Assembly: GCA_018829455.1 (NCBI GenBank)
Contig: JAHJUB010000002.1
Span: forward strand, 1-35,428
DNA from: Candidatus Omnitrophota bacterium
GTDB lineage: Bacteria; Ratteibacteria; UBA8468; MWAK01
Direction: 5' to 3'
Length of the DNA: 35,428 nucleotides
Each line of letters opens with the position of its first letter. Position 1 is the first letter of the stretch. This document shows, piece after piece, positions 2,584 to 23,781 of the stretch. The notes beneath the pieces are model-generated. The model was not told the origin of the DNA. It did no database searches and saw only the letters and a list, made by a program, of their open reading frames with translations. A program made the position numbers and the translations under genes.

Positions 2584-2638
2584 GTAGGGGCGGGGTTACA
2601 TCCCCGCCCACGGGAGGGGACATAAGCCCCTCCCCTAC
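2584..2638. repeat. GTAG-headed hairpin doublet (REP/REPIN-like)
   Basis: GTAGGGGCGGGGTTACATCCCCGCCC, then ac, then the reverse complement of GTAGGGGAGGGGCTTATGTCCCCTCCC. These are two hairpin units in inverted orientation bracketed by GTAG...CTAC. Confidence 0.85.
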
Positions 2639-4708: not shown

Positions 4709-4800
4709 GTAGGGGCGGGGACTTACCCCCCTGACAAGGGGGGCAAGGGGGGTTTACATCCCCGCCGCCCGCGGTTTGACAGGCGAGACGCCTGTCCTAC
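4709..4800. repeat. Composite GTAG-hairpin element with nested insertion
   Basis: The unit GTAGGGGCGGGG..TTACATCCCCGCC is the same as at 2584, but here its loop is interrupted by about 32 nt carrying its own CCCCCC-TGACAA-GGGGGG hairpin. It is followed by ACAGGCGAGACGCCTGTCCTAC. The terminal CTAC holds the ddl stop codon. Confidence 0.85.
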
Positions 4801-8754: not shown

Positions 8755-8839
8755 GCGACCCTGAAAGGGTCGCACTACGTTCGGGAAATGTAGGGGCGCC
8801 ATTCATGGCGCCCGCGGGCTTGATGAATCAAGCCCCTAC
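8755..8839. repeat. GTAG-hairpin units: one single unit plus a 50-nt doublet
   Basis: Single unit: GCGACCCTGAAAGGGTCGCACTAC (8755-8778, head on the minus strand). Doublet: GTAGGGG-CGCCATTCATGGCG-CCCGCGGG-CTTGATGAATCAAG-CCCCTAC (8790-8839). Confidence 0.9.
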
Positions 8840-21890: not shown

Positions 21891-22268
21891 ATGGAATGGA
21901 AATCGTTCGGGGACAATATCTCAATAACCGGCAAACCAAGGGAAGTGCGCTCGTTAAAACTGCCGGATGCGCTCGGCAATTTCCGGCGTTACCGGGTTAC
22001 CACCACCTGGGATTTAGACCGGTACAATTTCACCCGGGCGCCGGCCGTCGGACGGCTGGCCAAAGACAATAAGGAGGGTAAAATCGGCGCGGTGGTTATG
22101 GGTCGCAGCGGCGGTTATCTAAAAATCGGACGGTTTCCGAACCGGCAGACGTTTCTTTTTGTCCCGCTCAACAGTCTCAGTCAAAAAGTAAAAAACGGCC
22201 TTCTCAAAAACGAGAACTTGGACCTCTTCCTGGAAGGAAACCTGCTCTTCGCCCGCCAAAGGGAATGA
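21891..22268 (+). CDS. Hypothetical protein, 125 aa
   Basis: Intact ORF (MEWKSFGDNISITGKPREV...). A decayed paralog lies at 18816. No family recognised, and no SD lies upstream. Confidence 0.6.
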   Translation: MEWKSFGDNISITGKPREVRSLKLPDALGNFRRYRVTTTWDLDRYNFTRAPAVGRLAKDNKEGKIGAVVMGRSGGYLKIGRFPNRQTFLFVPLNSLSQKVKNGLLKNENLDLFLEGNLLFARQRE

Positions 22269-22305
22269 CGAACTAAAATTTGGTGGGAGAGGCGGAAAGG
22301 ATTAA

Positions 22306-22637
22306 GTAGGGGCGCCATTCATGGCGCCCGCGGGTCGGATCCTCCTTCGCCAAGGCTACGGCGGACGCGGTAAATCCGACCCCTACATTAACAGCGCCAA
22401 ACAAGCTTGGCAACTACAAATAAAAAGCGACCCTGAAAGGGTCGCGCACTACGTAGGAACGGGAATAGTTAAAGTAGTGTGGATTCCCGCTTACTATCCG
22501 CCTTCGCTAAAGCTTCGGCGGACACAGTCCGCGGGAATGACAGAGGGGTGACAGGCGACCCTGAAAGGGTCGCACTACGAAAGAGACAGGCGGGACGCCT
22601 GTCCTACTACGCGGGTCGGATGAATCCGACCCCTACA
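22306..22637. repeat. Array of at least 8 GTAG-headed hairpin units of several subtypes (BIME-like mosaic)
   Basis: The units are: 22306-22386 (a doublet whose TCGGAT/ATCCGA hairpin loop carries a 32-nt insert), 22396-22417, 22427-22452, 22453-22496, 22555-22578, 22586-22607 and 22613-22637. Most have their GTAG head on the minus strand. Confidence 0.88.
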
Positions 22638-22668
22638 TTTTTAGTGTGTTTTGTACTTCTTCAAGCGA

Positions 22669-22835
22669 GGATTGTCTCTTTTGCAGCACTTCGCGAAGTG
22701 TCAGCGACAAAACAAGCAATACGGAGGCTTGAGTGGCCGGGGCTCACCTGCAGTTTAGGTGAGAACACGGCGAGGCTCAAGCCGGAGTTGCGTAGTTTTG
22801 TCTGACACGAAGAGTGTGCAGCAAAAGAGACATCC
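22669..22835. ncRNA. 167-nt long imperfect palindrome: candidate rod-shaped structured RNA, or a TIR element
   Basis: The arms 22669-22713 and 22795-22835 pair in blocks of 4, 11, 4, 7 and 7 bp, separated by internal loops. The apical part has GGCTTGAG/CTCAAGCC (22726-22733 and 22776-22783) and CTCACC/GGTGAG (22743-22748 and 22758-22763). It starts 5 nt after the rpsG stop. Strand and function are unknown. Confidence 0.4.
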
Positions 22836-22840
22836 GAGCG

Positions 22841-23311
22841 CTACCACCGATAATGCGCAAAAGCCCGGTTGGCTTCGGCCATGCGGTGAACCTCATCCCG
22901 ACGCTTGATGGTCTCACCTTCGCCCTTGTAAGCATCCAGAAGTTCTCCGGCGAGTTTCTCAAACATCGGTTTTCCCTTACGCTTACGAATTATCTCCAGC
23001 ATCCAGCGGATAGCCAAAGACAAGGAACGGGCCGAGGGAACTTCCATCGGCACCTGGTAGGTGGCGCCGCCGATTCTCCGGCTGCGCACCTCAACCCTGG
23101 GACGGGCATTATCTAAGGCCTTTTTCAAAACGGCGGTTGGATTTTCCTTGGTCTTCTCGCCGATAATGTCCATCGTCCGATAAAAACTGGCGCGGGTAGT
23201 GCTCTTCTTGCCGTCATACATCATCAAATTAACGAATCGGGCAATCTCCAAACTGTTATACTTCGGGTCCGGCAACATCTCTCTTTTACTTGCCTTTCTT
23301 CGTCTTCCCAT
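22841..23311 (-). CDS. rpsG: 30S ribosomal protein S7
   Basis: 156 aa. MGRRRKASKREMLPDPKYNS...ANRAFAHYRW is canonical S7. Confidence 0.97.
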   Translation of the reverse strand: MGRRRKASKREMLPDPKYNSLEIARFVNLMMYDGKKSTTRASFYRTMDIIGEKTKENPTAVLKKALDNARPRVEVRSRRIGGATYQVPMEVPSARSLSLAIRWMLEIIRKRKGKPMFEKLAGELLDAYKGEGETIKRRDEVHRMAEANRAFAHYRW

Positions 23312-23722: not shown

Positions 23723-23781
23723 GCGACCCGGAAAGTTTATCCGCCGAAGCCAGTTTTTGGCGTAGGCGGGGGTCGCACTAC
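23723..23781. repeat. GTAGTGCGACC-type hairpin unit with insertion in its loop
   Basis: GCGACCC-GGAAAG[34-nt insert with CCGCC...GGCGG hairpin]GGGTCGC-ACTAC. The CTAC contains the rpoBC stop codon (23778-23780). Confidence 0.8.

Follow-up and report, generated by a model that had tools for sequence, protein, structure and literature searches.

Several hairpins in this stretch of DNA are interrupted in their loops by another hairpin-bearing segment, which raises the question of what was inserted, by which route, and whether the loop was its target. The window, i.e., the whole stretch of 35,428 nt, is contig C44 of a Ca. Ratteibacteria assembly (1.52 Mb, 246 contigs, 83% complete). This genome is termed G000 and its congeners G001-G004, with G002 being JBAZEZ01. 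REPs were located in the G000 assembly by a scan that required GTAG and then a mismatch-free stem of 7 bp or more. The flanks of each G000 element were mapped onto 1.12 Mb of G002. For the cosmopolitan scan, exact patterns of the two insert families, A and B, were searched in one genome per species, which gave at least 120 loci for A and at least 109 loci for B.

Split hairpins and their GTAG-tagged hosts

The unit at 4709-4766 (plus strand) carries a family-B module in its loop. It begins with GTAG (4709-4712), and its arms GGGCGGGG (4713-4720) and CCCCGCC (4760-4766) enclose an insert of 33 nt (4721-4753), which contains CCCCCC-TGACAA-GGGGGG-CAA-GGGGGG and is followed by TTACAT and the second arm. 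The module is flanked by ACTTA and TTTACAT, and its core CCCCCCTGACAAGGGGGGCAAGGGGGG lies at 4726-4752 (plus strand). The intact twin of this unit, 2584-2609, belongs to a REP doublet at 2584-2638 (plus strand), which was used as the empty reference and reads GTAG-GGGCGGGG-TTACAT-CCCCGCCC-AC-GGGAGGGG-ACATAAG-CCCCTCCC-CTAC. At 4778-4800 (plus strand), an intact neighbouring REP, GACAGGCG-AGA-CGCCTGTC plus CTAC, provides on the opposite strand the TAG that is the stop codon of ddl. G001, G002 and G004 lack the unit at 4709-4766, host REP included, in their orthologous ftsQ-ddl spacer; in G001, this spacer holds the 4778-4800-type REP alone.

Three further units carry family A. In the REP GGGTCGGA...TCCGACCC-CTAC at 22332-22386 (plus strand), the order is GGGTCGGA, T, an insert of 31 nt, TAA, ATCCGACCC and CTAC; the module TCCTCC-TTCGC-CAAGGC-TACGG-CGGA with the tail CGCGG occupies 22340-22370 (plus strand, 31 nt). 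Its intact twin is GGGTCGGA-TGAA-TCCGACCC-CTAC at 22613-22637 (plus strand). The REP at 23723-23781 (minus strand) reads GTAGT-GCGACCC...GGGTCGC in the minus sense, where GTAG supplies the rpoBC stop codon; on the plus strand, the order is GCGACCC, GGAAAG, an insert of 34 nt, GGGTCGC and ACTAC. The loop holds a long family-A variant (23735-23770, minus strand), CCCGCC-TACGCC-AAAAACT-GGCTTCGG-CGGA plus the tail TAAAC, and the intact twin GCGACCC-TGAAA-GGGTCGC-ACTAC lies at 8755-8778 (plus strand). The preliminary description had reported three loop-split units together with these three intact twins. All were recovered, the split units to within 1 nt, with the start at 22331 corrected to 22332. 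It had overlooked a fourth filled hairpin at 22481-22538 (plus strand), GGATTCCCGC-TTACTA-[A, 22497-22527]-TCC-GCGGGAAT.

Two other features of this region were noted. Downstream of rpsG, at 22650-22845, the window contains a rod-like palindrome of about 190 nt, which is multi-copy in all four congeners (dozens of matches, 75-88% identity). When G002:C1 88115-89510 is compared with window 22269-22660, an additional ~1.2 kb with a long ORF is found between rpsG and the REP cluster, which is missing from G000.

The GTAG and stem scan found about 430 REPs in the 1.5 Mb of G000, falling into 14 main stem families (among them GCGACCC, GACAGGC, GGGAGGG, GGGTCGG, GGGCGCC and GGGCGGG). Stems measure 7-8 bp, loops mostly 3-7 nt, GTAG or CTAC adjoins, and doublets of the form GTAG...CTAC are frequent, e.g., 2584-2638. 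In tag, stem size, copy number and dimers, the host units match the GTAG-tagged REP/BIME super-family (Di Nocera et al. 2013, PMC3733652). About 49 of the REPs have loops of 10-70 nt, most of which are filled by A or B. Each insert seen within a REP lies in the loop, as the preliminary description had proposed, and no A or B copy was recognised within a REP stem in G000. REP sites turn over rapidly: 18 of 157 mapped sites (11%) are common to G000 and G002, and orthologous positions may differ in stem family, such as GGGTCGGA at window 22332-22386 and GGGCTCGA at G002:C1 ~89330.

Two cosmopolitan families of 30-nt modules

Family A (30-31 nt) reads YCCGCC-TWCGC-YAARGC-TWCGG-CGGR plus a tail, CAAG, TAAA or CRCAG. 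It comprises a 6-bp stem, the conserved interior TWCGC-YAARGC-TWCGG and a tail of 4-5 nt. Family B, CCCCCCTGACAAGGGGGG-(N0-2)-CRA-GGGGGG, is about 29 nt long, with one run of C and two of G. In G000, A occupies loops in seven or more host stem families. The 29 copies of B in this genome are found almost exclusively (~27/29) inside G-rich REPs, the hosts being GGGCGGGG or GGGAGGGG. Of 60 pattern-matched A copies, 32 are enclosed by an outer stem of 6 bp or more with no mismatch, far above the 5% seen among 20,000 random windows, and several further copies lie in imperfect hosts. Composites fold with the host stem stacked on the module stem, the tail and the remaining loop forming a 3' bulge. 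Modules are also nested: A sits in the apical loop of another A at seven places in G000 (C45, C138, C64, C180, C212, C38 and C246), and one loop (C149) holds B and A together. At one orthologous REP (C120), a short form is carried by one of G000 and G002 and a long form by the other.

Rfam contains no family for the modules, either for the whole window at the gathering threshold or for 22250-22850 at E-values up to 10. A literature search by sequence found the letters of A and B in no paper, and keywords matched work on REP, RAYT, SDR and IS1397; a published description of the two families was not found by either kind of search. The inserts cannot be classed as REPs themselves, having no conserved tag, flanks free of information and the same sequence in at least 13 phyla.

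REP loops of G000 also hold other small hairpin inserts (C234, C170, C3, C154, C2, C138 and C207). One group of them ends in ACAAGTTT, e.g., CCCCAC-CTACTACAC-GTGGGG-ACAAGTTT, and has the ACAAG tail in common with family A.

That the inserts recur as a dispersed family, a possibility raised by the preliminary description, was borne out well beyond G000. Both families occur in at least 13 phyla among the loci listed from the exact-pattern scans, including cultured Bradyrhizobium and Geobacter. For A, the listed loci cover Alphaproteobacteria (cultured Bradyrhizobium and Maricaulis), Acidobacteriota, Verrucomicrobiota, Planctomycetota, Bacteroidota, Patescibacteria, Omnitrophota, Elusimicrobia, Nitrospirota, Desulfobacterota and further phyla. 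Those for B, at least 109 for its core, cover Gallionella, Geobacter (G. argillaceus), Geomobilimonas luticola, Poribacteria, Patescibacteria, Nitrospirales, Spirochaetes and further groups. Across phyla, 24-30 nt are nearly identical and the flanks are unrelated. In an alignment of 119 copies of A from 119 genomes, practically no information is left at -2 and beyond on the upstream side or at +6 and beyond on the downstream side. This delimits a block of 30 nt, one base outside of which the signal has dropped to zero, and the closing pair covaries (T-A 58, C-G 42, T-G 6).

The distribution is patchy at close range. In the set of the Ratteibacteria phylum, A was present in 8 of 65 genomes (reversed-pattern control: 0), and the B core was absent from the four congeners G001-G004 and from genome G006. 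In IMG/VR, A was found on 31 contigs and B on none, and matches to A in plasmids and phages of cultured hosts were at chance level only. A and B are cosmopolitan, non-autonomous and patchily distributed. In other phyla, 6% of 117 A copies and 4% of 111 B copies lie between inverted repeats, compared with about 4% of control windows; for this cosmopolitan sample, loop targeting as an intrinsic property of A and B is ruled out. A 16S rRNA origin of A was considered and rejected, as the common 12-mer TGGCGAAGGCGG is probably a chance match. At three loci in other phyla (L059, L101 and L121), there are tandem expansions made up of A halves or of complete units with a spacer of 9 nt.

Copies outside REPs are found in three settings. 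First, comparison of G000 with G002 revealed exact, in-frame 30-nt A insertions in a 1110-aa ORF (C123) and a 405-aa ORF (C218), the latter putatively MnmA-like, judging from a motif. In-frame insertions of 60 nt (A in A, C38) and 39 nt (C42) were also seen. Three clean 30-nt ORF copies translate to PAYAKASAGK, PSFAKASAGK and PAYAEASAGK. Second, the P3 loop of RNase P RNA (Rfam-confirmed) contains two nested A in reverse orientation in G000 (C212 3830-4281, i.e., L329 830-1281), one forward A in G002 (C9 41942-42356) and one A in Geobacter (L032 2586-2977). The G000 gene measures 452 nt against 367 model positions, and A-like sequence is also present in P12 of G002 and Geobacter. Third, the last six bases (...TCC-G-CC) of four tRNA genes of G000 (two in C1, one each in C104 and C242) are at the same time the 5' arm of the adjoining A, with an overlap of 6 nt in 4/4 cases. 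In G002, an A complex directly follows a tRNA-Ala and is missing in G000.

Rod hairpins of about 78 nt with A-like termini (CCGCCTTCGC...GCTACGGCGG) stop at the Shine-Dalgarno sequence of five genes in G000 (C60, C173, C179, C215 and C226). By eye, we take these genes to encode a membrane protein, a phosphate-binding-like protein, a ferredoxin-like protein, a lipoprotein and an SPFH-like protein, which seem to be unrelated. The rods may be 5'-UTR structures made of nested modules.

Gain and loss as exact units, and possible routes

Filled and empty alleles of the same hairpin were found in sister genomes. The hairpin at window 22481-22538 is filled and its collinear counterpart at G002:C1 89433 is empty (GGATTCCCGC-TTACTACAC-GCGGGAAT). 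The REP at G000:C234 11324 (GTAGT-GCGACCC...) differs from that on G002:C9 by a gap of exactly 30 nt. Beside the rpoBC stop codon, a GTGCGA hairpin contains a module in G002 (C1 90643) and lacks one in G003 (C117 12680). The unit at 23723-23781 is filled in both G000 and G002, so this insertion is common to both genomes and older. If the empty G002:C5 doublet is reverse-complemented and a 31-nt A block and a 35-nt B block are added, the result equals the doublet at G000:C225 2965; as the G000 doublet is inverted with respect to G002, it possibly replaced a REP instead of receiving its modules in place. A and B hence come and go as exact units, both in REP loops and at other sites. Each in-place event is either an insertion or a precise excision, the direction not being distinguishable from the data.

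With a probability of roughly 80%, the split units are ordinary GTAG-tagged REPs whose apical loops received one ultra-small, gene-less, self-folding module of family A or B.

The junctions of A and B show no duplication of fixed length, and the bases following a module repeat its first 1-9 nt. In this respect, the insert resembles one period of a circular or tandem arm-core-arm'-tail sequence, and the 3' arm has two possible pairing partners, its own 5' arm and the copy downstream. The repeat is CCC or TCC in ORFs, TCC (the entire loop) in GACAGGCG hosts and TCCGC(C) at tRNA ends; it reaches 9 nt at C42, and for B it is the 6-nt TTACAT, the host loop sequence that stands on both sides of the module in GGGCGGGG hosts. 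This identity is strong in G000 and weak in the cosmopolitan sample (46/119 observed versus ~31 expected). The upstream flank of the 119 A copies has neither conserved bases nor 5'-side microhomology. A strict 3-nt target (YCC) was also considered; it suits the ORF, tRNA and GACAGGCG cases and was rejected because it fails for the GGGAGGGG, GGGCGGGG and GCGACCC hosts.

The chances are about even that insertion uses single-stranded or hairpin-extruded DNA at targets that partly mimic the 5' arm. In such a route, a structure-guided cut-and-join or copy-and-join step would act on the exposed strand and leave no fixed target duplication. The target would imitate part of the module's 5' arm, and at the four tRNA genes, the tRNA 3' end would be the 5' arm itself. 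The logic would be that of IS200/IS605-type HUH elements, with a putative enzyme. An excised circle or a tandem junction would read ...CAAG-YCCGCC... for A and ...GGGGGGTTA-CATCCCCCC... for B, the hyphen marking the joint.

How the modules became concentrated in REP loops can also be explained with no loop targeting at all. A and B could have entered REP loops a few times, filled REPs could then have multiplied as composite units, and insertions disrupting a stem would have been lost. Orientation, position and tail subtype are constant within each host REP family, which also fits a few founding insertions followed by composite spread. Identical composites occur at separate loci (C138/C225 and C31/C88), G002 lacks any host REP at 8 of 9 mapped B sites, and the concentration of B in REPs of G000, together with its absence from the four congeners, suggests that filled REPs may also spread as composites. 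The low conservation of REP sites and the missing loop enrichment of the cosmopolitan copies point the same way. Since so few REP sites are conserved between G000 and G002, most orthologous sites cannot separate in-place insertion from the arrival of a filled REP. On the other side stand the clean in-place differences in collinear hairpins, i.e., 22481-22538, C234 11324 and the G002/G003 pair, as well as the nesting of A in A and the loop shared by A and B. Furthermore, GACAGGCG hosts contain at least eight A variants at one junction, among them the long variant and each of the two covarying states (TAAAG and CAAGG). As a complete explanation, composite spread without targeting seems the less probable account, yet the strongest of the alternatives. 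In addition to in-place events, a secondary spread of filled REPs is probable. It is about an even bet that the REP-loop concentration in this lineage was secondarily amplified, with filled REPs spreading or turning over as composites.

The claim that insertion is targeted at loops accordingly holds in part. Within REPs, the loop is always the site; the cosmopolitan copies are not enriched in hairpins, and in G000 A also resides in ORFs, at tRNA ends and in RNase P RNA. Since loop enrichment is lacking outside this lineage, the preference may reflect tolerance, selection or composite amplification. The preliminary description had suggested that the hairpin family is, or recently was, mobile. 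The small inserts do move and REPs turn over fast, but the mobile unit need not be the family of GTAG hairpins.

Enzyme-free copy-choice is a rather doubtful alternative to insertion of a module into single-stranded or extruded DNA. A nascent strand would switch to another, tandem or circular module copy, return at a short identity and paste one period where hairpins stall the fork. The 1-9 nt of identity between the module start and the following bases would be explained, including TTACAT on both sides of B and the 9-nt repeat at C42, and so would the partial tandem expansions of module halves at L059, L101 and L121. Against it, the inserts are always complete and have the same ends in unrelated phyla, and conserved microhomology on the 5' side is lacking. 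Near-identity over 24-30 nt across phyla argues for sequence recognition and not for chance switching.

It is more improbable still that the modules are functional elements under selection, such as binding sites or RNA structures stabilising transcript ends or 5'-UTRs, which were recruited into REPs. Composites do fold into longer and more stable structures, A-ended rods stand just before five Shine-Dalgarno sequences, and the stem covaries; yet copies lie in frame in ORFs, in RNase P loops and after tRNAs, occur in both orientations, are patchy in close relatives and belong to no Rfam family. Finally, the idea that nothing was inserted, and that these REPs simply vary in having long loops of changing content, is already refuted. 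The loop contents recur in G000 and, between unrelated flanks, in at least 13 phyla, orthologous empty hairpins exist and modules are nested, so the gain and loss of discrete modules is real.

Candidate drivers, implications and known systems

G000 (83% complete) was searched with the PF01797 profile. A single IS200-type TnpA was found, the end hairpins of which are unrelated to A and B, and no RAYT. All-versus-all clustering of the ORFs within 2 kb of the 120 listed A loci yielded no protein family recurring beside A. A search of G000 for split A halves around an ORF returned only nested A copies and the 78-nt rods upstream of unrelated genes. Genes for Y1 enzymes are present in 38 of the 65 genomes of the Ratteibacteria phylum, and A is present in 8. 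In G003 and G004, TIRs flank the Y1-like genes, which have no link to GTAG REPs. At L279 (G003:C53) and L283 (G004:C6), such genes of about 215 aa lie between GGGACAGCCCCCATATTTT inverted repeats, and the L279 flanks also carry a direct repeat of ~100 nt. These loci represent a TIR-type tyrosine-transposase element and no REPtron. The link to HUH/Y1 enzymes, whose substrate preference the preliminary description had invoked, is an analogy; these searches of G000, its congeners and the 120 A loci found no driver enzyme.

Somewhat speculatively, A and B could form a class of insertion modules not described before, minimal in size (~30 nt), cosmopolitan and guided by structure. A widespread, highly conserved enzyme, either an HUH-type nuclease or a housekeeping ssDNA enzyme, would move them in single-stranded form. 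The 3' arm of the module would pair with a target mimicking the 5' arm, such as the loop of a REP, the 3' end of a tRNA or YCC within an ORF. This reading is unlikely as it stands; if true, bacteria at large would possess a minimal natural DNA inserter that is addressed by base pairing and reshapes REPs, structured RNAs and proteins.

If truly mobile, the 30-nt modules would be among the smallest insertion elements known. They would account for part of the structural diversity of REPs (hairpins within hairpins) and would be a source of ten-residue protein loops of the PAYAKASAGK type and of extra helices in RNase P RNA and tRNA trailers. Their driver would have to be widespread and conserved, and its identification could bring to light either a novel chemistry for inserting ssDNA or an additional activity of a familiar enzyme. 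Mobility can be tested directly in carriers, since Bradyrhizobium, Maricaulis, Geobacter argillaceus and Geomobilimonas luticola are available in culture.

Among known elements, MITEs are 70-300 bp long and have TIRs of 15-30 bp and a fixed duplication; the inserts measure 30-35 nt and have 6-bp arms and junction repeats of 1-9 nt. Elements of the IS200/IS605 family are moved by an HUH Y1 transposase in a single-stranded, hairpin-guided manner, and gene-less derivatives exist. The modules resemble them in lacking a target duplication, in hairpin ends, in putative single-stranded targets, in a short flank related to the element end and in a possible pairing of an arm ('guide') with the target (comparison drawn partly from PMC6006769). 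They differ in having one hairpin instead of two ends and a length of 30 nt, and no linked or matching TnpA was found. The lack of a fixed duplication fits IS200/IS605, but no tetra- or pentanucleotide is conserved ahead of the 119 A copies.

REP hairpin loops are known as insertion sites of larger elements. IS1397 and ISKpn1 insert in the loop of E. coli palindromic units, and ISPpu9/10 and others also target REPs (PMC94167 and PMC1525189, as cited in PMC3116915; PMC8450116). These elements are full-size, with a transposase, inverted repeats and a target duplication, whereas A and B comprise 30 nt and encode nothing. Rickettsia palindromic elements (RPE) and intragenic REPs (PMC3733652 and its refs 13-14) are in-frame palindromic repeats in functional genes; RPE are 100-150 bp long and confined to one genus, whereas A is 30 nt long and cosmopolitan.

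The hosts themselves resemble GTAG-REP/BIME and REPIN-RAYT systems (Bertels & Rainey 2011, PMC3116915; Ton-Hoang 2012, PMC3333891) in the GTAG head, GC-rich stems of 7-8 bp, loops of 3-7 nt, many compensatory stem sub-families, GTAG...CTAC doublets and hundreds of copies. In contrast to REPIN-RAYT, the REP in G000 is the host and not the guest. The guests A and B have no GTAG and are near-identical across phyla, and no RAYT associated with them was found in G000 (83% complete). REPs are lineage-specific and co-evolve with their RAYT.

Nostocaceae contain small dispersed repeats, SDR1-8, of 21-27 nt, reportedly described by Elhai et al. (2008, Genome Res 18:1484; cited in PMC5861425 and PMC3116915). 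SDRs and modules A and B are alike in being very small (21-27 versus 30 nt), gene-less, hairpin-forming and apparently mobile. Both kinds nest in one another, use short specific motifs as insertion sites and come and go between related genomes. According to PMC5861425, SDRs were found in Nostocaceae only, whereas A and B are spread over at least 13 phyla and sit in REP loops, in-frame in ORFs, at the ends of tRNAs and in RNase P RNA, which makes them analogues of SDRs at most. Unlike REPs or SDRs, the modules are common to many phyla almost unchanged. By analogy, the nearest published counterparts are the Nostocaceae SDRs and the REPs nested in other palindromes, which PMC3733652 mentions in passing for T. 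roseum, A. variabilis and H. neapolitanus.
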